Assembly (NCBI GenBank): GCA_003152075.1
Contig: PLZG01000093.1
Span: 15,445 to 79,444 of the forward strand
DNA from: a candidate division FCPU426 bacterium
Lineage (GTDB): Bacteria > Oederibacteriota > Muellerivitia > Muellerivitales > Muellerivitaceae
DNA: 64,000 bases
Reading direction: 5' to 3'
Positions within the stretch are counted from its first letter, which is position 1; each line of letters begins with the position of its first letter. The position numbers were made by a program, and so were the translations under genes. The notes beneath the pieces were generated by a model. That model ran no database searches and was not told the DNA's origin. It saw nothing but the letters and a program-made list of their open reading frames with translations. Positions 5,744-49,974 of the stretch are shown piece after piece.

Positions 5744-7374
5744 TGAAAACTATTCTCGATTGGCTCGACGAACGCACCGGCTGGCGCAAAATCAAGGAAG
5801 TCATCCTGGACCGGCATATCCCCAAGGGTGTGGACTGGCGTTACACCCTAGGAAGCGTCACTCTTTTCTTCTTCGTTCTACAAGTAGTCACCGGCATCCT
5901 TTTGGCCATGCATTACTCCCCCTCCCCCGATCATGCCTATGACTCGGTAAAGTACCTTTCGAAGGAAGTCCCAATGGGGGGCTTCTTGAGGAGTTTACAC
6001 AAATGGGGCGCCACAGGAATGGTGGTGACGGTGTTCCTGCATATGCTTCGGGTGTTTTTCATGGGGGCCTATAAGTATCCCCGGGAAGTCACATGGCTCT
6101 CCGGAATCCTTCTCTTTTTCTTTGTGATCGGTTTTGGGTTTACCGGTTATCTTCTCCCCTGGGACCAGAAAGCCTATTGGGCCACCACCGTGGGCGCCCA
6201 TATGGTGGAACAAGTTCCTTATTTTGGCGCTGGCCTGGCGAAAATCATGAAAGGCGGCCAGGATTTGGGCGCCGTCACCTTGGCGCGGTTTTATGCCATC
6301 CACGTGCTGGTTTTCCCCGCCTTGACTCTCCTCTTCATGGTTATCCATCTTTTCCTGGTGGTTTGGCACGGAATCTCCGCTCCACCGGAGCGCGAAACTC
6401 CTTCGACCGATCGCAGGGATCCGAACTGGAAAACCCGCCTTCAGGCCCGCTACCTGGAACTCAAGTCCCAGGGAAAATCTTTCTGGCCCTATATCATCTT
6501 TAAGGACACCGTGGCGGTTACCTTGGTCTTCCTCATTGTCCTAGGCGTAGCCCTGTGGAAAGGTGCGGAGCTGGAGGATTTGGCCAACCCCACCGACACT
6601 ACCTATAACCCCCGGCCCGAGTGGTATTTCCTTTCGGTATTCCAATTGCTGAAATATTTCCCCGGCAAACTGGAAGCTTTCGCCATCGTCCTGTTGCCGC
6701 TGATTGTCGTCACACTATTGTTCGCCCTCCCCTTCCTGGATAAAGGGCCCCGGAGGCACCCGGCCGACCGCAAATGGCTGGTGGCGGCCGGTTGGATGGC
6801 CGTATTGGGTTTAATCGTTTTGACAGTCCAAGGCGCCTACACGCCCTTGACCAATCCCGTCGGCGAAAAAAACCCAATGGTCATGGAAGGAAAGCGTCTT
6901 TACGGAGACCTCCACTGCGAGTATTGCCACACCTTGCACGGCCACGGAGGAACAGTTGGCCCGGTCCTGGATGAAGTCGGCATACGCCGCAACCAGGATT
7001 GGCTGGCCAACCACTTCCGAAACCCCAAAAAAGTAACGCCTGGAACCAAGATGCCCAACTTCAATCTTTTGGATGGCGAGGTGGAATCCCTGGTGGCTTA
7101 CATGAGCACCTTGGGGGCGGGAACATTCACGGCGAAGGCCCCAGGGCTCTTCGAGGAAAACTGCGCTACCTGTCATAAATTCCATGGGGTAGGCGAGGAA
7201 ATCGCTACCGATTTGACCCATATCGCGGGAGTTCGGGACGCCGATTACATCGCGGCTTATATCAAGGATCCTATCAAGTTGAATCCCGATGCCGCCATGC
7301 AGGGCTTTTCCGACCAATTGACCGCGGACCAGATTAAGGACTTGGCCAATTACCTGTACCAGCAGGGTAAATAA
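5743..7374 (+). CDS. Cytochrome b (b6 plus subunit-IV-like) with fused C-terminal dihaem cytochrome c domain
   Basis: Eight predicted TM helices with paired His ligands in helices B/D (..HYSP.., ..LHMLRVFF.., ..HVLVFPAL.., ..HLFLVVWHG). The C-terminal ~170 aa carries two CxxCH motifs (CEYCH, CATCH). This domain is paralogous to the stand-alone dihaem cytochrome 49136..49798. Confidence 0.85.
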   Translation: MKTILDWLDERTGWRKIKEVILDRHIPKGVDWRYTLGSVTLFFFVLQVVTGILLAMHYSPSPDHAYDSVKYLSKEVPMGGFLRSLHKWGATGMVVTVFLHMLRVFFMGAYKYPREVTWLSGILLFFFVIGFGFTGYLLPWDQKAYWATTVGAHMVEQVPYFGAGLAKIMKGGQDLGAVTLARFYAIHVLVFPALTLLFMVIHLFLVVWHGISAPPERETPSTDRRDPNWKTRLQARYLELKSQGKSFWPYIIFKDTVAVTLVFLIVLGVALWKGAELEDLANPTDTTYNPRPEWYFLSVFQLLKYFPGKLEAFAIVLLPLIVVTLLFALPFLDKGPRRHPADRKWLVAAGWMAVLGLIVLTVQGAYTPLTNPVGEKNPMVMEGKRLYGDLHCEYCHTLHGHGGTVGPVLDEVGIRRNQDWLANHFRNPKKVTPGTKMPNFNLLDGEVESLVAYMSTLGAGTFTAKAPGLFEENCATCHKFHGVGEEIATDLTHIAGVRDADYIAAYIKDPIKLNPDAAMQGFSDQLTADQIKDLANYLYQQGK

Positions 7375-7429: not shown

Positions 7430-8014
7430 ATGGGAAAACACCTTACCATCTTTTTGCTTGGCGCGGCCTTCATGGCCTGTATCCCACTTTCCTCTTTCGC
7501 CGGCCAGGGTGGCGACCCCGTCACCCTAACCTTCCAGGAAAAACAGGGACATTTCGATATCATTGGCCATTTTAGTGTCCAAGCCGATTCAAAAGTGGTT
7601 TGGGATACCCTTACCGATTTTGAAAATTATCCCCATTTCTCACATGAGTTGAAAAAAGTAAACGTAACCAATCCGTCCCCAAATCATCTAACCGCGGAAG
7701 AAATGGCGGAAAGCGGAGTGTTGTTTTTTACTCAAAAGGTTTATTTCACTTTAGACATCCATTTGGAACCTGAAAAATCTATCCTTTCGAAGGACACAGG
7801 CCATAAAAGTTTCGTTTCCTACCAAAGCGAATGGAATCTCGAACCCGGCAATGGCAGAAAAACCATGGAATTGACTTATCATTTATTAGCGGAAGGGCAC
7901 TTCGGTGGACCCGCCTTCATGGTCAACGACACTTTCAAAGGTGGCATCAAGAACTTCCTGGAATCCATGCGCAAGGAAATCCTGCGGCGTCAGGAGAATA
8001 AATTTCAGAAATAG
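7430..8014 (+). CDS. Secreted SRPBCC (polyketide-cyclase/Bet v1-like) superfamily protein, hypothetical
   Basis: Signal peptide; mixed alpha/beta ~170 aa mature domain. Clear paralogue of 57293..57943 (shared ..W..LTD[FY].[NH][FY]..F.. core). Fold assignment is tentative. Confidence 0.45.
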   Translation: MGKHLTIFLLGAAFMACIPLSSFAGQGGDPVTLTFQEKQGHFDIIGHFSVQADSKVVWDTLTDFENYPHFSHELKKVNVTNPSPNHLTAEEMAESGVLFFTQKVYFTLDIHLEPEKSILSKDTGHKSFVSYQSEWNLEPGNGRKTMELTYHLLAEGHFGGPAFMVNDTFKGGIKNFLESMRKEILRRQENKFQK

Positions 8015-8941: not shown

Positions 8942-9010
8942 AAAGCGCCTCTTCCCCCGGTCCCATTTCCTCTTTCGGCTCTCGGGACATAGAATGGGAA
9001 GGGAGGGTTT

Positions 9011-9802
9011 ATGAAAAAGTCTTATTTCTTCGCCCTAGTCGGCCTGGCCCTCGGGGCCGGCGCCCCCGTTGGTGCCTTTTTATTGCGGTGCGTCACCCCT
9101 ACTTTTCCTTTTTCCCTTTTCTACCGTCAGGAGATGGTGGAACATGGTTTCTTTTACATCTATATGCTGGTGGGCACTTGCCTGGTTTTCTCCATTTTCG
9201 GTTTTTTCATCGGTCGCAGCGAGGATTTGCTTATCCACAAGGACGTAATTCTATCCAAAGAGGTATTGACCGATCCCTTGACGGGCCTGGGCAACCACCG
9301 TTTTCTCCACGATACCTTCAAAGTCGAATTCCGCCGGCATGTCACCAGCCGCCAGCCTATTTCCTGCCTAATGTTGGACCTGGATCACTTCAAAGTAATC
9401 AATGACACCTACGGCCATCCCTTCGGTGATTATGTGCTGAAACAATTCGCCGGTCTGGTGAAAAGATCCATTCGGGTGGACGACGTGGCGGCCAGGTACG
9501 GCGGCGAGGAATTCTTATGTATCCTGCCCAATTGCGACCAGGACCAGGCCAGGACGGTGGCGGAAAGGATTCGCCGGGAGACGGAAAGACATTCCTTTTC
9601 CCATGGAGGGAAGAAGGTGAAAGTGACCGTCAGTCTTGGCGCCGTTACCAGTTACGAGAGCTCGGGGTTGAATTACCGCCAGCTCATCGCCTTGTCAGAC
9701 CAGGCCCTCTACGAGGCAAAGAAAAAAGGCCGAAACCAGGTGGTTCAAACAACCCTTCAGATGATGAAAAAATACGCGAGGCGTAAATCTTCAAAAAGCT
9801 GA
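9011..9802 (+). CDS. Membrane-anchored GGDEF diguanylate cyclase
   Basis: Two N-terminal TM helices. GGDEF domain with active-site RYGGEEF and an upstream I-site-like RxxD. Confidence 0.8.
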   Translation: MKKSYFFALVGLALGAGAPVGAFLLRCVTPTFPFSLFYRQEMVEHGFFYIYMLVGTCLVFSIFGFFIGRSEDLLIHKDVILSKEVLTDPLTGLGNHRFLHDTFKVEFRRHVTSRQPISCLMLDLDHFKVINDTYGHPFGDYVLKQFAGLVKRSIRVDDVAARYGGEEFLCILPNCDQDQARTVAERIRRETERHSFSHGGKKVKVTVSLGAVTSYESSGLNYRQLIALSDQALYEAKKKGRNQVVQTTLQMMKKYARRKSSKS

Positions 9803-11071
9803 GGCCAGCCGGTTCCGGACATCGGAAAGGATCGCTTCCACGTTCAAGGATTGGAAGCACCCCCCCGCGTCACAAACCTTGGCCATCTTATGCATGCAGG
9901 TGATGTTCCGGCAGGAACTTTCGGATTGATGGACACGGGCCCAGGCCTTTTGCTCGGCCTCCAGGAAATCCCACCGGAACGAATCATAGCCCGACAACCG
10001 GGGTGGGGTTGCCCCAAAAACCCCTAGAACGGAGGTCCGGTTTCGAAAGGCGCGCTTTCCCATTCGGTCTTTTTTCCATGCCGCGGCCAAATGAAGGGGT
10101 CCCGTATCGCCGGAAATGAAAACATCACTTCGGTCGATGAGTGCCGCGTAGGCGTCAAGGGACAAAGACGAGGGCACCAAAACAACTCGGTCCCGCTTCC
10201 ACAATGGAATTGTAAACAGAAGTCTTTCAGCCAACTCCTTATCCGCCCTCGCTTCGCCCAGCCAGACACGGCAAGGCAACTTCACCAAGCGGTTCAATAT
10301 TTCCGCCTGGTACTGAAAGGGTATTTGGGTAAAGGGCGAGGCCGTTTCAGGGTTGAGGAAAACTACGGGCTCACTTCCCTGTCGGAATCTTTCCTCAAAC
10401 CGGCGCGCCTCCTCGGTGGCTTCCGGAGAAAGGATCAAACAAGGGCCCTCGAAGACGCGGGATCTTCGGACAGGAAAAAAAGGATGCAAAATATCATATA
10501 TGAACCTGTGGGCCTGGTAAGAAATATGATTTAGAGTGTTTCCTTTCCACTCGTTGCGGGCGAAGGCAGATGTTTGGGTCATGATATTAAATACCTTTTC
10601 AGGTTCCGGAAACTGATCGGTTTTTATAAACGGACAAAGGTTGAATATAGCGTCATATTTGGTCGACACTTCCATGACGCTTAAGATATCACGCTCGTTA
10701 GGAAATTGGCCGCCCGTGAAGGCAGGCAAAAGCTTTGAAACGTCTTGGTGCCCCTCCAACAAACAGGCAACAGATTTTTTTACCATGTAATCGATCTGCG
10801 CTTCCGGAAAAAAATCCCGGATGGCCGACACCGCTGTCTGCGCGAGTACCGCGTCGCCGATATGGATGTCCGAAATGACGAGAATGTTTTTGAAGTCCAA
10901 AAGCCGCTTTATTTTCCGGTAGTTCCATTCCCGGAAAAAGTTCACCAGAAACTGGTTTCCCAAAAGGGGATAAAAAAAACCGTCCATCGCCTTCGCCCCT
11001 GCCTTGGGAAACAAACGCGTAACCCCACTGGTAAACTTAAAAAATCCTTCAAAAAACCGGTCAGATTCCAT
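9791..11071 (-). CDS. Glycosyltransferase family 9 (ADP-heptose:LPS heptosyltransferase-like) with Cys-containing C-terminal extension
   Basis: N-terminal ILVISDIHIGDAVLAQTAV and C-terminal SGDTGPLHLAAA motifs match the GT9 fold. The start is set at the internal Met so that it does not overlap the desaturase. Confidence 0.5.
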   Translation of the reverse strand: MESDRFFEGFFKFTSGVTRLFPKAGAKAMDGFFYPLLGNQFLVNFFREWNYRKIKRLLDFKNILVISDIHIGDAVLAQTAVSAIRDFFPEAQIDYMVKKSVACLLEGHQDVSKLLPAFTGGQFPNERDILSVMEVSTKYDAIFNLCPFIKTDQFPEPEKVFNIMTQTSAFARNEWKGNTLNHISYQAHRFIYDILHPFFPVRRSRVFEGPCLILSPEATEEARRFEERFRQGSEPVVFLNPETASPFTQIPFQYQAEILNRLVKLPCRVWLGEARADKELAERLLFTIPLWKRDRVVLVPSSLSLDAYAALIDRSDVFISGDTGPLHLAAAWKKDRMGKRAFRNRTSVLGVFGATPPRLSGYDSFRWDFLEAEQKAWARVHQSESSCRNITCMHKMAKVCDAGGCFQSLNVEAILSDVRNRLASAF

Positions 11072-20542: not shown

Positions 20543-20731
20543 TTATTTTTCGGGCCAGGGTGTGTTCTTATCCCTCCCGCTTTCCCGCGATGGATTGGAA
20601 AGGCTTTCCTCGTCGTCGGCAAAACGAACTTTTCCCCGTAGGACGCACCCTTTCATTCCGGGGACACAATCCCTGTTTGCCCTTTGGCAAAAATAATCCC
20701 CCGTTTGATAGGGGCATGACCAACTGGACAT
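20543..20731 (-). CDS. Small Cys4 protein (62 aa), paralogue A
   Basis: WSCPYQTGDYFCQRANRDCVPGMKGCVLRGKVRF: a C-x8-C-x6-C-x5-C core conserved with 53834..54043 (WSCRYQSGESYCDRVRVGCIPGMLGCALRGKVRF). Divergent from the Crp/Fnr gene. Confidence 0.45.
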   Translation of the reverse strand: MSSWSCPYQTGDYFCQRANRDCVPGMKGCVLRGKVRFADDEESLSNPSRESGRDKNTPWPEK

Positions 20732-20805
20732 GGATTCCGTTCCTTAAGCGCGGGCTTTTAAGTCACCCGACAGTGACATTCTTGAGCGAATCGGTTTCGG
20801 CCTAT

Positions 20806-21486
20806 ATGATGGGCATCATGAACAAGATCGATGCCCTGAGAAAAACGGAGATGTTCGGCTCCCTTTCGGGCGAGGAATTAAAAGTTGTCGCCAAATCCTG
20901 TGTGGAAAAACCCTTGAAAAAGGGCGAAACACTCTTTTGCGCGGGGGACGAGGCCCGGGGCCTTTACGTGATCGCGAAAGGTTCCTTGCGGGCTTTCCGG
21001 ACAAACGAGGACGGCCGGGAACAAGTCATCCACGTGGAGCGGGCCGGCACCACCATGGCCGAGGTCCCCGTTTTCGATGACCGGCCCTATCCCTCCACGG
21101 TGGTGGCGGAGGAGGACAGCGACGTCCTTTTCATTTCAAAAGCGGACGTGAAACGGCTATGCCTCCAACACCCGGCCATCGCCTTGTCGGCTTTGAAACT
21201 CCTGGCAGCTCGCCTCAGAAAAACGGCTGCCCTGGTTGAATCACTCTCCCTTCGTGAAGTCGACCAACGCCTGGCTGCTTTCCTCCTCCAGGAATTCAAG
21301 GAAAAGCGTTTGAAAAAACTCCAACTGCCGACCAATTCGGACATCGCAACCCGCCTAGGCTCGGTTCGGGAAGTGGTTTCCCGCGCCTTCGCCAAACTGG
21401 AATCCGAAAAACTGATCTCGGTCGACAAGCACCGCAACGCCGAACTGTTGAACGAGAAAGGTCTAGGCAGTTACTCCGGAAGTTGA
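20806..21486 (+). CDS. Crp/Fnr-family transcriptional regulator (no N-terminal Fe-S Cys cluster; Dnr/NnrR-like)
   Basis: cNMP-binding beta-roll (..GETLFCAGDEARGLYVIAKGSLRAF..) and C-terminal HTH (..TNSDIATRLGSVREVVSRAFAKL..). The start was chosen at MMGIMNK because the upstream GTG-initiated extension of the track ORF overlaps gene 20543..20731. Confidence 0.85.
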   Translation: MMGIMNKIDALRKTEMFGSLSGEELKVVAKSCVEKPLKKGETLFCAGDEARGLYVIAKGSLRAFRTNEDGREQVIHVERAGTTMAEVPVFDDRPYPSTVVAEEDSDVLFISKADVKRLCLQHPAIALSALKLLAARLRKTAALVESLSLREVDQRLAAFLLQEFKEKRLKKLQLPTNSDIATRLGSVREVVSRAFAKLESEKLISVDKHRNAELLNEKGLGSYSGS

Positions 21487-28009: not shown

Positions 28010-30343
28010 TCAATAACTTTCCGCTTCCTTGCCCAACCTGGCCGAAACAGGCTTCTTGCTTTGACGGTAGCTCCAGATGAGGGCCGCGACCAATAAAACC
28101 ACTATCGACCAACCGACCATTCCCAAAGTTGGATACTGCACCACAATGGGCGCGATGATGACCGAGATCAGGTTGACCACTTTGATCATGGGGTTCAAGG
28201 CTGGACCGGCCGTATCCTTCAAGGGATCCCCTACCGTATCGCCCACCACGCTGGCTTTGTGACGGTCCGAGCCCTTGCCGGTATTACGGGCCGGGTTTCT
28301 CGCCTCATCCTCGATAGCTTTCTTGGCATTGTCCCAGGCCCCGCCCGCGTTTGACATGAAGACCGCTAAAAGCTGGCCGGACAAGATGACGCCCGCCAGG
28401 AATCCGCCTAGGGCTTCCACCTGCAGGAGTAACCCCACCAAAATAGGGGTCAACACACCGAGCAATGCCATGCTGATCAACTCATGCTGGGCCGCGTAGG
28501 TACAAATGGTAACCACATGGTGATAATTGGGCTTCACCTTGCGGGTGAGAACTCCCGCTTTAAACTGTTTACGGACCTCATCCACGATCAAGGCCGCCGC
28601 CCGGCCAACGGCTTTAAGGGCAAAAGCGGAAAAGAGCCAGGGCAGTCCCCCGCCGATGAGCATCCCGATCAAAACCTGCGGATTGGAAACCCGAATACCG
28701 ATCGACACCAATTGTTCCGAGAGGGGCACCTTCATCATTTCCTGGACCGCGCTGACGTTCACGATAAAAGAACCGAAAAGCGCAACCGCCGCGATGACGG
28801 CCGACCCGATGGCCACCCCCTTGGTAACGGCCTTGGTGGAATTGCCTGCCTGATCTAAACCCGTCAAGACCTTGCGGGCTTCCACGGTGACCTTGTCCTT
28901 GCGGTCGCCCCAGGCCATTTCGCCGATGCCGCTGGCGTTATCCGAGATGGGCCCGAAGGAATCCATGGCCACGTTATCGCCGGTGAGGGTCAACATGCCG
29001 ATACCGGTGAGGGCCACACCATATAAGATATAAGTTAGGCGTTCGGCCGCCAGCATTCCCGGGATGGTACCAAAGATGGCCACCGAAACCATGAGGGTGA
29101 CGGCGATAAGGATAATGGCCCAAAAGGTGGATTCAAAACCCACCGACAACCCCGTAATAATTGTCGTCGCCGCTCCGGTATGGGTGGCATCCTTGATCTC
29201 GTTGACCGGGCCCCGCTCCACCTCGGTGAAATAGCTGGTCAGGAAGAAAAGACCAACAGCCAAAGCCACACCCAGGGCGGTCGCCAGCACCGGCCTCCAC
29301 CAGCCGAAGGGCACACTTTGAAGATAGAAGTAGCCAATCAAGCCAAAAAAGAAGACCGAGTTCACGGCGGATATCAGGAAGCCCCGAAGGATAGGGATCA
29401 TGGCGTTGCCCTTGTCCGAGGGACTCGCCTTGACCAAATAGGTTCCTAAAATGGAGGACATGACGCCTACGGCCCGCACCATCAGGGGGAATACCACCCA
29501 CTCCATGCGGCCCGTCAACTGATACAGCGCCAGCCCCAAGATCAATCCTGAAACAATGGTCACCTCATAAGACTCAAAAATATCAGCCGCCATACCGGCG
29601 CAGTCTCCCACATTGTCCCCCACCAGGTCGGCGATAACCGCTGGGTTTCTTGGATCGTCCTCGGGTATACCCGCCTCGATTTTACCCACCAAGTCCGCCC
29701 CAACGTCAGCGGCCTTCGTATAGATACCCCCGCCCACCCTCATGAAAAGGGCAATCAGCGTGCCGCCGAACCCAAAACCCAAAAGCGCGTCAGGGGCCGC
29801 CACTCCCAAAACCATGAAAATAACCGTGCCGCCCAAGAGGCCCAAACCATCGGTGAGCATTCCCGTGAAGGTCCCAGCCCGATAGGCGATGCGCAACGCT
29901 CCGGGAAAGCCTTTGCGGGAAGCCTCGGCCACCCGGACGTTGGCCTGCACCGCCATGCGCATACCCAACTGGCCCACCGCCAGGGAAAAGCCGGCGCCTA
30001 GGAGGAAAGCGAAGGCGCGGGCCAGTCCGATATAAAGCCGGATGTCCTCGGGACTCAAATGGGGAAAACGTAAGAGGGCGTCCTTGGAGGGGGGAACGAT
30101 ATAGACGGAATAAAAAAGGGCAAAAGTTAAGAGGACCATCAAGGGGAGGATGCTTTTCAATTGGCGGCTCAAATAAGCCTTTGCTCCCTCCTCGATAGCC
30201 GCCCAGACTTTCCGCATATCCCCGTCACCCGTGGGTTCCAAAAGAACGTGGCTTCGAAGGTAATAGGCGTAGGCAAGGCCTAAGAGGGAAACCCCCAGGA
30301 TGATCCAAAGGGAGTACTGCTCGAGAAGTGTAAGGCCTTGCAT
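28010..30343 (-). CDS. hppA: Membrane-bound proton (or sodium)-translocating pyrophosphatase
   Basis: 777 aa, about 16 TM. Conserved [20 protein letters not shown] and [11 protein letters not shown] motifs of V-type H+-PPases. Confidence 0.95.
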
Positions 30344-30476
30344 GGAACCGCTCCTTAAAGTAATGATATGAGGCAGAGTCCAGTCGCGAATTTATGGTAC
30401 GGTTTTTCGTTGCCTCATTCTCAAGACAATGGAGAAAGGCGAGCATGACGGCAATCATATTGTTAGCAGGTTGTTG

Positions 30477-34471: not shown

Positions 34472-34728
34472 AAAAGCCTCCTGTTTGCGGGCCGCAAAAA
34501 TAAATTAAGCTTCAAAGCGGCCCTGCGACCCCTAAAATTCCGCAGGAATTTGGGGATTACTTTGAATGTTTTCGGAAAAAGCCCAACGCGGTTGGACTTT
34601 TTCAATTTACAAATAGACCCCCCAGGCTGATATACATCATATTTCTCGGGAGCCATTTAACCTTTAATACGGCAGGGTTAATTGTCCTTGGAAGGGGACG
34701 GGCCCACAATCAACCCCGGGGGTGGAAA

Positions 34729-35235
34729 ATGATCACTTGGTTCCAGGAAGCATTGAGGAAAAGTCACACCAGCATTTGTTTGCTGAGGAAGGGCAACAAG
34801 GTCTTCTATCAAAATTCAGTTTGTAAAAAACTTTGTGGGAATTTTTCAGGAAAGGATTGCCCCCAAACTTGCGTCTCCTCTTGCGAGAAAAGTCTGGGAC
34901 GGCCCTTGGGCGAGGATGGCATCGAACACTTCTCCAACAACAAGGTCGGCAACGAGTTTTTTGACGCTCTTTTCTTCAATGCTCTTCCCTATCGAATGGT
35001 CCTTTTGTATCCTCTTCAGCAAAAATACGACGCTTGGCTCAAACGGTTCAAAGACAAGAACCTAAGCCGGAGGGAATTGGAAATCGCGAACCTTTGCATT
35101 CAGGGATTCACCAACTCCCGGATTATCAAAAGACTTTCGATTTCAAAAGCCACGTTGAAAACCCACTTGAACAACATCTACAAAAAAATGCCCGAGGCCC
35201 GTTCTGAATCCTGGCGCAGGTATACAGCGGCCTGA
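34729..35235 (+). CDS. LuxR/GerE-family transcriptional regulator with Cys-rich N-terminal domain
   Basis: C-terminal HTH (..LSRRELEIANLCIQGFTNSRIIKRLSISKATLKTHLNNIYKKM..). N-terminal C-x14-C-x3-C-x7-C-x3-C-x3-C cluster (CLL..CKKLCGNFSGKDCPQTCVSSC). Confidence 0.65.
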   Translation: MITWFQEALRKSHTSICLLRKGNKVFYQNSVCKKLCGNFSGKDCPQTCVSSCEKSLGRPLGEDGIEHFSNNKVGNEFFDALFFNALPYRMVLLYPLQQKYDAWLKRFKDKNLSRRELEIANLCIQGFTNSRIIKRLSISKATLKTHLNNIYKKMPEARSESWRRYTAA

Positions 35236-35259
35236 CAGCGAAAAATTAAGGGAGGTTGT

Positions 35260-36303
35260 TTGAAAGAGACCGTAATCACCGTGCTACCCATGGCCACGGC
35301 CAAAAGGATTGTGCAAGACCTGTTCAAGCCGAATCCGCTCCTCTATTGGTCGGATTTTTTATTCTTCGACCTTTTGGGTTGGGCCGCTTTCATCTTAGCC
35401 GTAAGGGCGAATAACTTTTCCCCTTTACAGTTGTCCGCCTTGATCGTGGCGGGCTTTGCCTTCTATCGGTCCGTCCTTTTCGTGCATGAGTTGTCCCATT
35501 TTAAAAAGGGGACGTTCCGGCTTTTCCATTTCGTTTGGAACCTCCTTTGTGGTTTCCCGCTCACGATTCCATCTTTTATTTACATAGGAGTCCACACCGA
35601 GCATCACAAACAGTCGGTTTATGGGACGAAGGACGATCCCGAGTATTTCGCCTTCGCTTTGGCGAAGCCCTACCGGATTCCCCTCTTCCCCCTGACCATG
35701 TTGGTGGCACCCGCTTTCTTTCTCCTCCGGTTCCTGATCCTGACCCCGCTCTCCTATGTTTTCTATCCCCTCCGTAAGCCCCTATGGGTTTTTGCTTCCC
35801 ACCTAGCGGCGGGAGGCACTTACCGGCGGCCCCTACCCAACCCAAAGGAAAAATGGGAAGCTGCCATCCAGGAATTCATGACTTTCGCCTACCTGGCCAC
35901 TGCTTTCACTTTGATGGTGAAGGGAATCCTTCCCTGGAAGGTGCTGGGCGTTTGGTACTTCATGGCTGGATTCATATTGGTCTTCAACTCCCTGAGAAGC
36001 CTTGCCGCCCATTGCGACAGGAACCCCCCCGACCATGTGATGACTTTCGAAGAGCAAATCCGGGATTCCACCGATATTCCCGGCAATCCCCTCACCACGC
36101 CCCTTTGGGCTCCGGTGGGACTTCGGTTCCATGCAACCCATCACCTGTTCACCGGTATTCCTTATCATTCCCTTGGCGAGGCCCATCGGAGGTTGATGCG
36201 GGAGCTTCCCAAAAACAGCGTCTATTCCCAGACCTTCCGTAAAAGTTTATGGAGTGCCGTGGGTCAATTGTGGAAGGAAGCCAGCCTAAACAGCGTGAAA
36301 TAA
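35260..36303 (+). CDS. Membrane fatty-acid desaturase / hydroxylase family di-iron enzyme
   Basis: His boxes HELSH, HTEHH and HATHH with 4-6 TM helices. Distinct from the delta-9 enzyme at 11061. Confidence 0.75.
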   Translation: MKETVITVLPMATAKRIVQDLFKPNPLLYWSDFLFFDLLGWAAFILAVRANNFSPLQLSALIVAGFAFYRSVLFVHELSHFKKGTFRLFHFVWNLLCGFPLTIPSFIYIGVHTEHHKQSVYGTKDDPEYFAFALAKPYRIPLFPLTMLVAPAFFLLRFLILTPLSYVFYPLRKPLWVFASHLAAGGTYRRPLPNPKEKWEAAIQEFMTFAYLATAFTLMVKGILPWKVLGVWYFMAGFILVFNSLRSLAAHCDRNPPDHVMTFEEQIRDSTDIPGNPLTTPLWAPVGLRFHATHHLFTGIPYHSLGEAHRRLMRELPKNSVYSQTFRKSLWSAVGQLWKEASLNSVK

Positions 36304-36316
36304 ACTTCGGTTGTTT

Positions 36317-37231
36317 TCAGCCTTTGAAGAACCGGCTCGCCTCATCCAGTTCCTCGACTTGGGCTTGTGCCAAACGCCAGCCCATCGCGCCAGCGTTTTC
36401 CCTTACCTGGGCGGCCGTCTTGGCGCCGGGTATGGGAAGTGCCCCCTTGCATAAGAGCCAGTTCAGGGCGACCTGATTCACCGTTTTTCCACCGTGGGTC
36501 GCCCCCAATGCATTAAGTTTCCCGACCAGGGTTTGGATTCGACCCAATTGGCCGAAGTAAAAAAGCCGCCGGGGACCCGAAGGCGGATTTTGGGGCGAGT
36601 ACTTACCCGAAAGCATTCCCATCCCCAAGGGGCTGTAGGCAATGAAGCGCACATTGGTTTTTTTACATTCTTCCAATAGGCCATTCAGCTCATTCTTACG
36701 GCGAACCAAACTGTATTGCATTTGGTTGGAGGCCAGGGGCACACCGTGGGCCGCTAAAGCCTCCTGGGCCCGCAACATCTGTCCTCGGGTGAAATTGGAA
36801 ACGCCCACTTCCTTCGCTAACCCTTCCTTGACCGCTTCGGCCATGGGCTCCATCCAGGACTTAACGGTACGAGGAGGGCTTGCCCAGTGCATCTGATATA
36901 GGTCCACGGATTTCAAACCCAGGCGGGTCAGGCTGGCCTTCAAGGCTTTCAACAATTGGGACGTGGAAACCCGCCAGGGATAGGGCGCGAACTTAGTGGC
37001 AACGTAACTTTTCTTGGGCTTTATCTCCTTGAGAAATTGGCCCAGAAAGCTTTCCGATTCGCCCTCGCCGTAAACTTCCGCCGTGTCAAACAGTTGGATG
37101 CCCGAATCCAAGGCCGCCCGGAAGGTTTCCCTCAGATCCTGGTCGTTGTAACCTTTGCCGTACCCCCAAACCTGGCCCTTGCCCCATGCCCAGGTGCCAA
37201 GTCCCATCTCACATTCGGTTAAAAAGCTCAT
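36317..37231 (-). CDS. Aldo/keto reductase
   Basis: AKR (beta/alpha)8 signature (..GTWAWG.., ..FDTAEVYG.., ..LDLYQMHW.., C-terminal ..GAMGW..). Paralogous to 56262..57248. Confidence 0.9.
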   Translation of the reverse strand: MSFLTECEMGLGTWAWGKGQVWGYGKGYNDQDLRETFRAALDSGIQLFDTAEVYGEGESESFLGQFLKEIKPKKSYVATKFAPYPWRVSTSQLLKALKASLTRLGLKSVDLYQMHWASPPRTVKSWMEPMAEAVKEGLAKEVGVSNFTRGQMLRAQEALAAHGVPLASNQMQYSLVRRKNELNGLLEECKKTNVRFIAYSPLGMGMLSGKYSPQNPPSGPRRLFYFGQLGRIQTLVGKLNALGATHGGKTVNQVALNWLLCKGALPIPGAKTAAQVRENAGAMGWRLAQAQVEELDEASRFFKG

Positions 37232-37277: not shown

Positions 37278-37441
37278 GTTGTCATTGCGAGGAACGAATT
37301 TTGTGACGAAGCAACCCCAGTTCACGGCTTGTTTTCGTCTTAAAAGGAACAGGCAGACGAACTTCAAAGTCGTATTAATACCCAAAAACTGTGGTTGCTT
37401 CGTCGCTGAAACTAAGGAATGACGCTCTTCGCAATGACAAC
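37278..37441. repeat. Low-GC (~42%) 164-bp element with ~40-bp imperfect terminal inverted repeats and internal hairpin (MITE-like or structured RNA)
   Basis: Left arm GTTGTCATTGCGA...GACGAAGCAACC (37278-37316). Right arm GGTTGCTTCGTC...TCGCAATGACAAC (37393-37441). Internal hairpin CGTCTtaaaaggaacaggcAGACG. The GC content is well below that of the flanking genes. Confidence 0.5.
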
Positions 37442-37492
37442 TTCCGACATTCACTATATATCATTTCTCTATTCGAAATTTAATGCGCCGAA

Positions 37493-38542
37493 TCATAAAG
37501 GAGGCTCTTCCGCTTGAGCCTTTAAGAATGACCTAATGGTATCTAAATATAGGGCGGTGGAAATCGCCAGGGGAATCAGAAAAAAAACAAGCCGGTAGAT
37601 CAGGGCCGCCACCAGGGTTTTCTCAAAACTCACTCCCATGTTCTTGAAGGTAAGAGCTACCAAGGACTCGCTGACTCCCAGCCCGGCGGGCACCGGATTG
37701 ACATTGGACGAAAGAAACATCACCGCGAAACCCACCAGCAGAAGACCCAGGGGCAAGTCCACCCCCACGGCGTGAAAACAGAAATAAAAGGTCAAAGGCA
37801 TCAGGCACCAATCCAGGGCAATCCAGAAAAAGACCAGCAGGAGATAAACCCGGCCCTTATGCAAAAGGGCCACGGTGGTTTCCAACTTAGCGCGGATTAT
37901 CACCAATCCCCGGGGGTCCTTTTTCCTACGCAGAATTTTATGACTGATCCAATGGCTCGTGCGAAGGATTTGGCGCAAAACCCAGCGGCGAAAGGCGCGG
38001 TGGAGAAAGATCATCATCATCGCCCCCATGACAACCAAAAGCCCCGCCATAAAAACCAAGACCAAGGCTTGTTTTGGTCCGCCTGTGAATTCGGGGTGTC
38101 CATGAAGATAAAACAGGGCCCCAAAGCAGACGCAGGACAGTACCAGGTTGAAAATCATGTTTTGGGCCAGCGACAGCGGAATCGTGACCGAAAAGGGAAC
38201 TTTTTCATGTTTGAGGAGGAAAGCCCGGTTCGCGATACTGGACATGCCGCCGGAAGAAACGATGATGTTGATCGTGTCGGAGATGAACATGATGGAAAAA
38301 AATTTAGGGAAGGGGACCCGGTAGGGTGTCATTTTAAAAAGCGCGTTAAAGGAGAGCGCGGAGGCCAAATAGGCACCCACGGTGGAAAAGAGCGCGAAAG
38401 CCAAGGGGCCGATGGCCAAATGGCGAAAGACGTCCTTGAGCTTGGAAAAGTCGCTCGTGAGGGCAGTGGCCAAGGCCAACACCATAAGGCCCGCCACGAT
38501 CAGGAAAACAACCATGAGTGATTTAGGTTTGGATGGATTCAC
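37493..38542 (-). CDS. UPF0104 (lysylphosphatidylglycerol-synthase TM-region-like / flippase-like) integral membrane protein
   Basis: Eight TM helices. The N-terminal region matches the family pattern by eye. The gene is flanked by ~50-bp direct repeats (37449-37500 and 38736-38790). Confidence 0.55.
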   Translation of the reverse strand: MNPSKPKSLMVVFLIVAGLMVLALATALTSDFSKLKDVFRHLAIGPLAFALFSTVGAYLASALSFNALFKMTPYRVPFPKFFSIMFISDTINIIVSSGGMSSIANRAFLLKHEKVPFSVTIPLSLAQNMIFNLVLSCVCFGALFYLHGHPEFTGGPKQALVLVFMAGLLVVMGAMMMIFLHRAFRRWVLRQILRTSHWISHKILRRKKDPRGLVIIRAKLETTVALLHKGRVYLLLVFFWIALDWCLMPLTFYFCFHAVGVDLPLGLLLVGFAVMFLSSNVNPVPAGLGVSESLVALTFKNMGVSFEKTLVAALIYRLVFFLIPLAISTALYLDTIRSFLKAQAEEPPL

Positions 38543-38636
38543 AAAACTTTCTTTGGGAAACCGGGTTTTATCCCAGCCTTAGCCGGGAAAGACAAACTGT
38601 AACCTCTGAAAACTCATCAATCCGTGTTTTTTGCGG

Positions 38637-38716
38637 TTGTAGGAGCGGGATTCATCCCGCCCGGCCTTTGTTTTCATTCGTTTCCGCCTCGGACGCGATA
38701 AATCGCGCCCCTACAA
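38637..38716. other. Structured palindromic element (outer stem TTGTAGG/CCTACAA enclosing two hairpins) in a divergent promoter region
   Basis: Hairpins GCGGGAttcaTCCCGC (38645-38660) and GCGCGATaaATCGCGC (38694-38709), enclosed by a 7-bp outer stem. It lies between the divergent genes 38542(-) and 38817(+). Confidence 0.4.
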
Positions 38717-38816
38717 AAACCAGTTATTCAGAAGTTACAAACTATATCATTTCCCTATTCGGCCCTAAGTGACCCGGATCATAAAACCCTATGTTATTCC
38801 ACCCTAGTATCACCCG

Positions 38817-39761
38817 ATGAAATCCAACCACCTAAAATTCAAAAAATTTATCCTTGGATTGGACATCGGCGGGACCAAATGCGCGGTCGTCCTGGGCGAT
38901 AAAAAGATGAGGATTTACGACCGACTTTCCTTTTCCACCCGACCCCAAAGGGGTTGGAAACGGATATGGAAACAATTGTTCGCATCCATCGATGAAATCA
39001 TCCTCCGCAACCACCTCAAGCCTGCTTCTATTTACAAAGCGGGCATCAGCTGCGGCGGTCCCTTGGATAGCCGCCGGGGGCTCATCCTCTCACCACCGAA
39101 CCTACCGGGTTGGGATAAAGTCCCTATCGTCAAAATGCTCCAAAAGAAGCTCCACTGCCCTGTCCGTCTCGAAAACGACGCTAACGCTTGCGCGGTAGCG
39201 GAGTGGAAATTTGGGGCGGGCCGGGGATGCCGCAACCTCGTTTTTCTCACCTTTGGCACGGGCTTGGGCGCGGGCCTTATCCTCAATGGCCGTCTTTACC
39301 GTGGCGCCAATGACATGGCGGGTGAAGCCGGTCATATCCGCCTGGCGATGGACGGGCCGATGGGTTATGGGAAAAAAGGATCTTTCGAGGGTTTCTGCAG
39401 CGGGGGCGGCATTGCCCGTATGGCTAAAAGGGATGGGGGCCAGACCATTTCGGCCAAAGAACTTTTCGAAGCCGCAAGCAGGGGAGATAAAGTTTCGCGC
39501 CGAATCCTCGAGAAAAGCGTTGGTTACCTGGGACTAGGCCTATCCATCCTCATAGACCTCTTAAATCCAGAACGGATCATCTTGGGCGGTATCTATTACA
39601 GGAACGAGAAATTTTTCCGCTCGGCTGCCCTTAAAGTTATCCGACAGGAGGCCCTTGCTCGCTCCCGGTCCGTTTGCCAGATTCTTCCTTCGGGCCTGGG
39701 CGAGAAAATAGGCGACATCGCTAGCCTTTCGGTCGCGCTCATGGATGAGCTGGATGTTTAA
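38817..39761 (+). CDS. ROK-family sugar kinase (glucokinase / N-acetylglucosamine kinase-like)
   Basis: N-terminal LGLDIGGTKCAVVLG phosphate-1 motif. ROK signature region with CGGPLD and a Cys/His zinc motif (..GH..C..G..C..G..). Confidence 0.85.
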   Translation: MKSNHLKFKKFILGLDIGGTKCAVVLGDKKMRIYDRLSFSTRPQRGWKRIWKQLFASIDEIILRNHLKPASIYKAGISCGGPLDSRRGLILSPPNLPGWDKVPIVKMLQKKLHCPVRLENDANACAVAEWKFGAGRGCRNLVFLTFGTGLGAGLILNGRLYRGANDMAGEAGHIRLAMDGPMGYGKKGSFEGFCSGGGIARMAKRDGGQTISAKELFEAASRGDKVSRRILEKSVGYLGLGLSILIDLLNPERIILGGIYYRNEKFFRSAALKVIRQEALARSRSVCQILPSGLGEKIGDIASLSVALMDELDV

Positions 39762-49798: not shown

Positions 49799-49974
49799 AG
49801 GCGGTTTTCAATCCGCTAAATGATCTGGATCATATTCCCCTTTTCCGCGAAACATTAGGATACAACCTGTATTGCAGTTCGGGACCAAAACCCCGAGCTT
49901 GAACGGCGGAAAAGTATCAAATAAAAAAGGAGGCGGTCTTAACCAAAGTTAAAATCGACTCTGTTGGAATTTGG

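Follow-up and report, generated by a model that had tools for sequence, protein, structure and literature searches.

The gene for a UPF0104-type membrane protein (hereafter LPG), carried on a 64-kb stretch of DNA from a candidate division FCPU426 bacterium, raises a question of origin. It is flanked by a direct repeat of about 50 bp and by two palindromic elements, of 164 and 80 bp, an arrangement that the original prediction took for the possible footprint of a small insertion cassette. Did the gene arrive as such a cassette, or do the repeats and the palindromes have separate histories? The whole stretch, referred to here as the window, is contained in a 287.6-kb metagenome contig and is compared below with seven related loci reached through orthologues of the neighbouring ROK-family sugar kinase gene (ROK) at 66-80% identity (L003, L005, L007, L009, L196, L197 and L198). 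The reading favoured here, with a probability of roughly 70%, combines a duplicated promoter module, a relocation of LPG and later insertions of the palindromes. Nothing marks the LPG segment as a mobile unit; LPG probably moved, and the repeat was probably duplicated at that time.

The individual parts named in the original prediction are all present. The UPF0104 gene encodes a protein that matches PF03706 (LPG_synthase_TM, E = 1e-35), its GTG start is kept in relatives, and its neighbours in the window are a fatty-acid desaturase gene (FAD) on the plus strand, an aldo-keto reductase gene (AKR) on the minus strand and ROK on the plus strand (Table 1). The 164-bp element with inverted repeats was recovered, with the low GC content ascribed to it. 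The 80-bp element, folded as DNA, shows the expected outer stem with two hairpins (z = -1.7 only), and folds into a single long hairpin as minus-strand RNA (z = -4.4). The flanking direct repeat occurs at both sites; its 43-nt cores, at 37457-37499 and 38743-38785, are 77% identical and have near-perfect flanks, and its 21-nt left block has two matches only in 64 kb, against 0.00 expected.

The minus-strand sequence of the repeat, TTTATGAy-N6-kCAy-N~17-AAATGrTATAGTG, contains a 16-bp palindromic box (consensus TATGA-N6-TCATA) and an extended -10 element, TGnTATAGT. The distance from the start of the box to the -10-like hexamer is exactly 37 nt in 8/8 AKR and LPG instances (window, L003, L005, L007 and L009). 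In copy 1, a module with a position-weight-matrix score of 58, the hexamer is TATATA at 37460-37455 or TATAGT two bases further; that of copy 2 is TATAGT at 38746-38741. The module lies 40-60 nt 5' of the AKR start in L003, L005, L007 and L009, the first two of which have it 5' of the LPG start as well, and relatives at 74-80% protein identity share it even without LPG at the site. The LPG stop codon is the TGA inside the copy-1 box (37495-37493), an overlap that recurs in L003. A scan for sigma-70 promoters and terminators gave no more matches than in shuffled sequence, and no -35 hexamer.

Class II promoters of the CRP/FNR family have a regulator site centred near -41.5 and lack a -35 element, and xTGA-N6-TCAx is the core of the sites recognized by this family. 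If the hexamer is placed at -12 to -7, the centre of the box falls at about -41.5, so that, with the 37-nt hexamer spacing as a proxy, an xTGA-N6-TCAx site stands near -41.5 in place of a -35. Judged by its sequence, the direct repeat is best described as two copies of a putative regulated promoter/operator of class II CRP/FNR-like type, both directed along the minus strand. Compared with E. coli CRP and FNR and with cyanobacterial NtcA (GTA-N8-TAC at -41.5 and TAN3T), the module has the same TGA-N6-TCA core, a fixed site over the -35 region, a TAnnnT -10 that is often extended, no -35 hexamer, many target promoters and a CRP/FNR-family gene in the genome. Unlike these systems, it has TATGA as its half-site rather than TGTGA or TTGAT, and its box density is very high, at about one site per 4 kb.

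The box might instead be a repressor operator or a site of another type, for example for the GerE/LuxR-type protein encoded nearby, its function being judged from sequence geometry. A GerE-family gene lies directly upstream of FAD in the window, and a one-mismatch box occupies a repressor-like position over the likely start codon of a CRP/FNR-family gene. This reading is nonetheless unlikely, as the strict 37-nt spacing, the missing -35 and the xTGA-N6-TCAx core make up a textbook class II arrangement.

The copy-2 module may serve a second gene. A (TGn)TAnnAT hexamer precedes the ROK ATG by 5-6 nt in the window and in all six relatives checked (window 38805-38819; L003 ~6325-6345; L005 ~7985-8003; L007 ~7985-8003; L009 ~7975-8003), which implies, from sequence conservation, a conserved leaderless ROK mRNA. 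In the window, the hexamer TAGTAT lies 6 nt before the ATG (38817). The copy-2 box may be shared with the divergent ROK, a predicted arrangement whose shared spacing is confined to this window.

The related loci suggest why the module is present twice. The AKR site carries one copy in L007, L009 and L198, where LPG is missing from the site, and two copies where LPG is present. Outside the box and the -10, AKR and LPG promoters have 12-24 of 32 positions in common, compared with 5-16 of 32 between these promoters and the other box promoters of the window; they are therefore paralogues, related beyond their shared regulon. They could alternatively be independent members of one regulon that converged on the same layout, and the box with TAnnnT at +37 does recur at many unrelated genes of the window. 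Convergence is distinctly unlikely, however, in view of the agreement at non-functional positions and of the block AAATGrTATAGTG, which across genomes is specific to the AKR and LPG promoters.

Gene order indicates how the second copy may have arisen. The window shares the order FAD-AKR-LPG-ROK with L003 and L005, whose intergenic regions are much shorter. In L007 and L197, LPG is on the other side, divergent from FAD. L009 and L198 have FAD-AKR-ROK with LPG not nearby, L197 is also without AKR, with FAD adjoining ROK, and L196, the most distant locus, has FAD followed by ROK. The AKR-ROK location of LPG is probably the derived state. The box in the LPG-FAD gap of L007 and L197 is positioned for FAD alone, and LPG would therefore have gained its copy of the AKR promoter on moving.

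According to the duplication-and-relocation reading, LPG would have moved from its position divergent from FAD into the AKR-ROK gap in an ancestor shared by the window, L003 and L005 lineages; the AKR promoter would have been duplicated during the move. One possible route is that LPG-FAD-AKR was duplicated in tandem and the superfluous copies were then lost. Each promoter copy would then drive one gene, and selection would have kept both for this reason. As in tandem duplication-random loss, the LPG and FAD-AKR blocks are swapped without inversion and a duplicated junction is left; the process is here only inferred, and no duplicated-gene intermediate was found. The event predates 20-25% protein divergence, which speaks against an att-type insertion.

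LPG itself appears to be an ordinary gene. Its orthologues are 64-68% identical to the window protein, those of FAD 73-76% and those of ROK 74-78%, and its GC content at third codon positions (GC3) is 0.66, the same as that of its neighbours. This normal orthologue identity and GC3 mark LPG as an ordinary gene, inherited vertically but relocated relative to L007 and L197. A foreign origin of LPG was rejected on the same two measures.

A cassette mobilized by site-specific recombination or by a miniature inverted-repeat transposable element (MITE) would explain part of this pattern. The repeats would be attL/attR-like or target-duplication edges and the palindromes recombination sites; an att-type insertion would yield the same distribution of two copies at occupied sites and one at empty sites, and copy 1 lies exactly against the LPG stop codon. 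The insertion reading of the original prediction stands in so far as the segment is variable, with one versus two copies of the repeat, and the syntenic comparison that it proposed does show LPG absent between AKR and ROK in L007, L009, L197 and L198. Its other elements are not upheld. The repeats are conserved promoters that keep their geometry across relatives, so that the explanation by a shared promoter or operator, which the prediction had itself named as refuting, is the one borne out. The palindromes arrived later and did not carry the gene as suggested, since L003 and L005 lack them although their gene order and repeats are the same. The proposed check of base composition shows no deviation in GC3, the orthologues of LPG are normal, and a duplication of 45 bp exceeds what a transposase would leave as a target-site duplication. 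Like an integron cassette, the segment consists of a single promoterless-looking gene bracketed by structured, imperfect palindromes. Unlike in integrons, there is no attI and there are no attC core sites, no integrase, transposase, other recombinase or attC-like partner lies within ~10 kb, and the palindromes do not coincide with the edges of the variable segment and are not found in relatives that share the arrangement. A cassette origin is thus very unlikely.

The orthologous leaders in L003 and L005 contain neither palindrome, and the AKR leaders of L007 and L009 also lack the 164-bp element. Since L003 and L005 match the window in gene order and repeats, the palindromes are later insertions and not carriers of the gene. 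Two unrelated, non-autonomous palindromes would have landed in two 5' leaders of the window lineage, where they would now add long hairpins to the AKR and LPG mRNAs. The window holds no further copies of the repeat, the 164-bp element or the 80-bp element. Rfam gave no meaningful match (gathering threshold for the whole window; E < 1 for the locus), and literature matches to the element sequence strings were to primers only. Assemblers break contigs at repeats. One 1381-bp contig of the same species, from another sample (L001, Logan SRR35570692), corresponds to window positions 37295-38674 at 99.9% identity and ends inside both elements, its right break falling just after base 38644, the one base that differs from the consensus of the repeat unit described below. 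These ends are as expected if other copies of the elements exist in that sample, and hint that they do. In L198, a different palindrome of 116 bp (7796-7911; 41-nt arms, 80% complementary) lies between the AKR promoter and the AKR start; more than one palindromic insertion has struck the AKR leader.

The 164-bp element belongs, by its sequence features, to a MITE-like family. Its arms comprise an outer 19 nt with 89% complementarity and an inner 18 nt with 94%, its local GC content is ~0.40-0.42, and its fold is a single long hairpin (z = -5.8 for DNA and -6.7 for minus-strand RNA, relative to shuffled sequence). A widespread unit, TCATTGCGAGGAGCGnAGCGACGAAGCAAC, is related to its TGTCATTGCGAGG tips. 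Of 59 inverted doublets in a metagenome scan, 15 are full-length homologues at 79-85% identity on independent JGI contigs. These homologues are intergenic and occur in every orientation, including between convergent genes. The family is thus multi-copy, with terminal inverted repeats and no coding capacity, as MITEs are; its stems are nearly invariant and offer little covariation to read. The contigs that host the homologues lack the promoter box of the window's lineage and therefore probably derive from other lineages. No target-site duplication was found, the flanks of 10 copies being without duplicated bases.

Known repeat families resemble this element in part. As in the CGTC/TGTC-tagged repetitive extragenic palindromic (REP) sequences and long palindromic MITE-like repeats (ERIC, Correia, RPE), TGTC/CGTC followed by AT stands at the tips of an imperfect hairpin, here of ~165 bp, and multiple diverged copies lie in intergenic DNA of several genomes, in either orientation. 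Unlike in the CGTC families, the terminal stem-loop does not readily fit the described 8-9-bp stem with a 4-5-nt loop: the TGTC and AT tag is present, but the terminal unit pairs only via ATTGC/GCAAY around a long loop. Unlike in known MITE-like repeats, there is no target-site duplication and no known transposase, and the arms differ by a conserved asymmetric internal loop.

The 80-bp element is of another kind. A GTAG-tagged REP is defined by an unpaired GTAG followed by a short palindrome with a stem of 5-13 bp and a short loop (Di Nocera et al. 2013, PMC3733652), and head-to-head dimers consist of inverted units with the tags outside and a spacer of 20-100 bp (PMC3733652). Both features are found here, in the tag with its stem-loop and in the inverted dimer with outward tags. 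The element has 27-nt arms at 81% complementarity with a hairpin of its own within each arm, and its units consist of GTAG and a 9-bp stem closed by a TC or TT loop, with one mismatch each. From its sequence, the element is assigned to the head-to-head dimers of GTAG-tagged REP units. The stems of this REP vary elsewhere with compensatory changes.

The exact 21-nt REP unit GTAGGRGCGSGATTYATCSCG occurs in at least 118 loci of a genome-collection scan (L011-L128). Among the matches listed, the metagenome-assembled genomes (MAGs) that bear it are labelled as ~18 phyla, with labels that include Acidobacteriota, Chloroflexota, Gallionella, Gemmatimonadota, Bacillota, Actinomycetota, Bacteroidota, Omnitrophota, Patescibacteria and others, and 46 of 128 REP units (36%) have a head-to-head partner. 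Other MAGs hold several copies of the unit. Such a spread is unusually broad for one REP sequence. Among the systems available for comparison, REPIN/BIME and TnpAREP/RAYT (PMC3733652, PMC8266576), the element resembles the REPIN/BIME type of GTAG-REP head-to-head dimers in its tag, 9-bp stem and 2-nt loop, in its ~28-nt spacer, in its extragenic position and in being a heterodimer whose stems differ. It differs from usual GTAG-REPs, which reach high copy numbers, in that a single dimer is present in 64 kb with no RAYT gene seen nearby, in that the same 21-nt unit is found across MAGs of many phyla, and in its location, which is the 5' leader of a gene and not its downstream side. In L009, 1 kb downstream of ROK, there is a Y1_Tnp (IS200/RAYT-like) gene (9883-10836; also in L010), which has a weak DnaA_C-type tail. 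As a tblastn query, its L009 protein gave no match in the window or in the 118 listed REP loci. A RAYT link through this gene was rejected, as it has no homologue in the window or the REP loci and its flanks are without GTAG REPs.

That the two elements might be dedicated cis-regulatory RNAs of AKR and LPG, akin to riboswitches or attenuators, is suggested by their position in the two 5' leaders and by minus-strand RNA folds of -65.7 and -44.2 kcal/mol. It is extremely improbable, given the lack of any Rfam match even at E < 1, the absence of the elements from orthologous leaders, the 164-bp family members that lie between convergent genes and in both orientations, and the presence of the REP unit in many phyla and unrelated contexts. 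For the 164-nt family in particular, a riboswitch or leader-RNA function was rejected in view of copies in all orientations, including between convergent genes. A more far-reaching account, which is offered tentatively and is less likely to hold than to fail, is that palindrome families circulate between distant lineages, and that the locus also records a promoter duplication that rewired a lipid-modifying membrane protein, LPG, into a global regulon of CRP/FNR type that is specific to the lineage and has a new box.

Such a regulon is suggested by the distribution of the box. With at most one mismatch, the window contains 16 boxes against 0.62 expected (~25-fold); seven are perfect and most are intergenic. 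No perfect box was found in ~1.1 Mb of unrelated loci. Of the 23 box sites in the window and four relatives, 14 have a TAnnnT hexamer exactly at +37 to one side, and other offsets are represented at most twice. Box-preceded genes include those for cytochromes c, hemerythrin, a cytochrome oxidase operon, two NMO-like genes, ScdA/RIC, pirin and a desaturase, the last in every relative examined; FAD has a perfect box directly upstream and TAnnnT at +37 in 4/4 relatives examined. The H+-pyrophosphatase (H_PPase) gene also has a box. These targets suggest oxygen, redox or nitrosative-stress functions, and from their sequence the TATGA-N6-TCATA boxes look like a lineage-specific global CRP/FNR-type regulon. 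The FAD gene is preceded by a 168-aa GerE/LuxR-type gene in the window only, with 24 nt between them, and a two-mismatch box with TTTAAT at +37 belongs to this pair. One further one-mismatch box, with TAGGAT at +37, lies between convergent gene ends with no open reading frame of at least 80 aa downstream; a small RNA or a small gene missed by the annotation may lie there.

A candidate regulator of the box promoters is the CRP/FNR-family protein encoded in the window, 17 kb from the locus, with cNMP_binding and HTH_Crp_2 domains. The likely true start of its gene is near 20818, which gives a probable 222-aa product without the N-terminal cysteine cluster. This 222-aa core is 60-87% conserved in many contigs, and the closest named homologues, at ~60% identity, are from Acidobacteriota. 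A one-mismatch box at 20805-20820 overlaps the probable start codon, and autoregulation of the gene is possible. A ScdA/hemerythrin gene follows it convergently. In L197, a second CRP/FNR-family paralogue (8964-9656, minus strand), 25% identical to that of the window, lies immediately downstream of ROK.

Table 1. Positions of the features discussed, in window coordinates.
Feature	Position	Strand	Remarks
AKR, aldo-keto reductase gene	36317-37231	-	predicted transcription from promoter copy 1
LPG, UPF0104/LPG_synthase_TM membrane protein gene	37493-38542	-	349 aa, GTG start
ROK-family sugar kinase gene	38817-39761	+	divergent from LPG
Promoter module copy 1, predicted to drive AKR	37452-37499	-	box TATGATTCGGCGCATT 37497-37482; TG 37463-37462
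Promoter module copy 2, predicted to drive LPG	38738-38785	-	box TATGATCCGGGTCACT 38783-38768; TG 38749-38748
Copy-2 box read on plus strand, possible ROK promoter	38768-38810	+	TAGTAT 38805-38810 at +37
164-bp palindromic MITE-like element	37278-37441	.	TGTCATTGCGAGG termini; in AKR 5' leader, between -10 and start codon
80-bp putative GTAG-tagged REP head-to-head dimer	38637-38716	.	in LPG 5' leader
REP unit a	38639-38662	+	
REP unit b	38714-38691	-	spacer to unit a ~28 nt
Box sites (16), first eight	1986, 4703, 8312, 13317, 17449, 17776, 19534, 20805		
Box sites (16), last eight	30444, 43215, 49073, 49819, 51519, 55371, 58667, 63356		
CRP/FNR-family gene	20560-21486	+	candidate regulator
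H_PPase gene	28010-30343		box at 30444
Two-mismatch box of the GerE-FAD pair	34626-34641		TTTAAT at +37
Interval also listed for the GerE-FAD pair	34729-36303		
One-mismatch box between convergent gene ends	49819-49834		TAGGAT at +37

Several points weigh against the combined reading of promoter duplication, relocation and late insertion. On the side of regulation, the predicted -41.5 position of the box has the -10-like hexamer as its sole anchor; the half-site is A-TGA here, versus G-TGA for CRP and T-TGA for FNR; the R-E-x-x-S-R recognition helix of the neighbouring regulator does not obviously predict the box; and the lineage has at least one further CRP/FNR paralogue. On the side of history, the promoters of a pair agree at 23 of 32 positions in the window, 14 in L003 and 18 in L005, so that the window's pair is closer than orthologous LPG promoters are to one another (12-15/32). 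This excess likeness needs gene conversion in the window or faster drift elsewhere, and may reflect gene conversion. The tree of relatives, which covers the window, L003, L005, L007 and L009, is unrooted and nearly star-like, and the polarity proposed for the LPG move is drawn from outgroup gene orders only. For the palindromes, a second copy of either was not found in the 64-kb window or in ~100 kb of relatives, and a RAYT gene was not found in the window.

For the reading of bacterial genomes, the locus illustrates that direct repeats on either side of a gene may have arisen by promoter duplication and not as recombination scars, and that hairpin elements nearby can be unrelated late arrivals. 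For an uncultured soil and peat lineage, the dense box provides a putative regulon, which touches on respiration, oxygen or iron-centre repair, and lipid desaturation, and a candidate regulator. One GTAG-REP unit common to MAGs of many phyla bears on how REPs spread. If true, the circulation of palindrome families between lineages would mean an ongoing horizontal spread of REP- and MITE-type elements across phyla, whereas REP/RAYT systems are usually assumed to be inherited vertically and to stay bound to their hosts.

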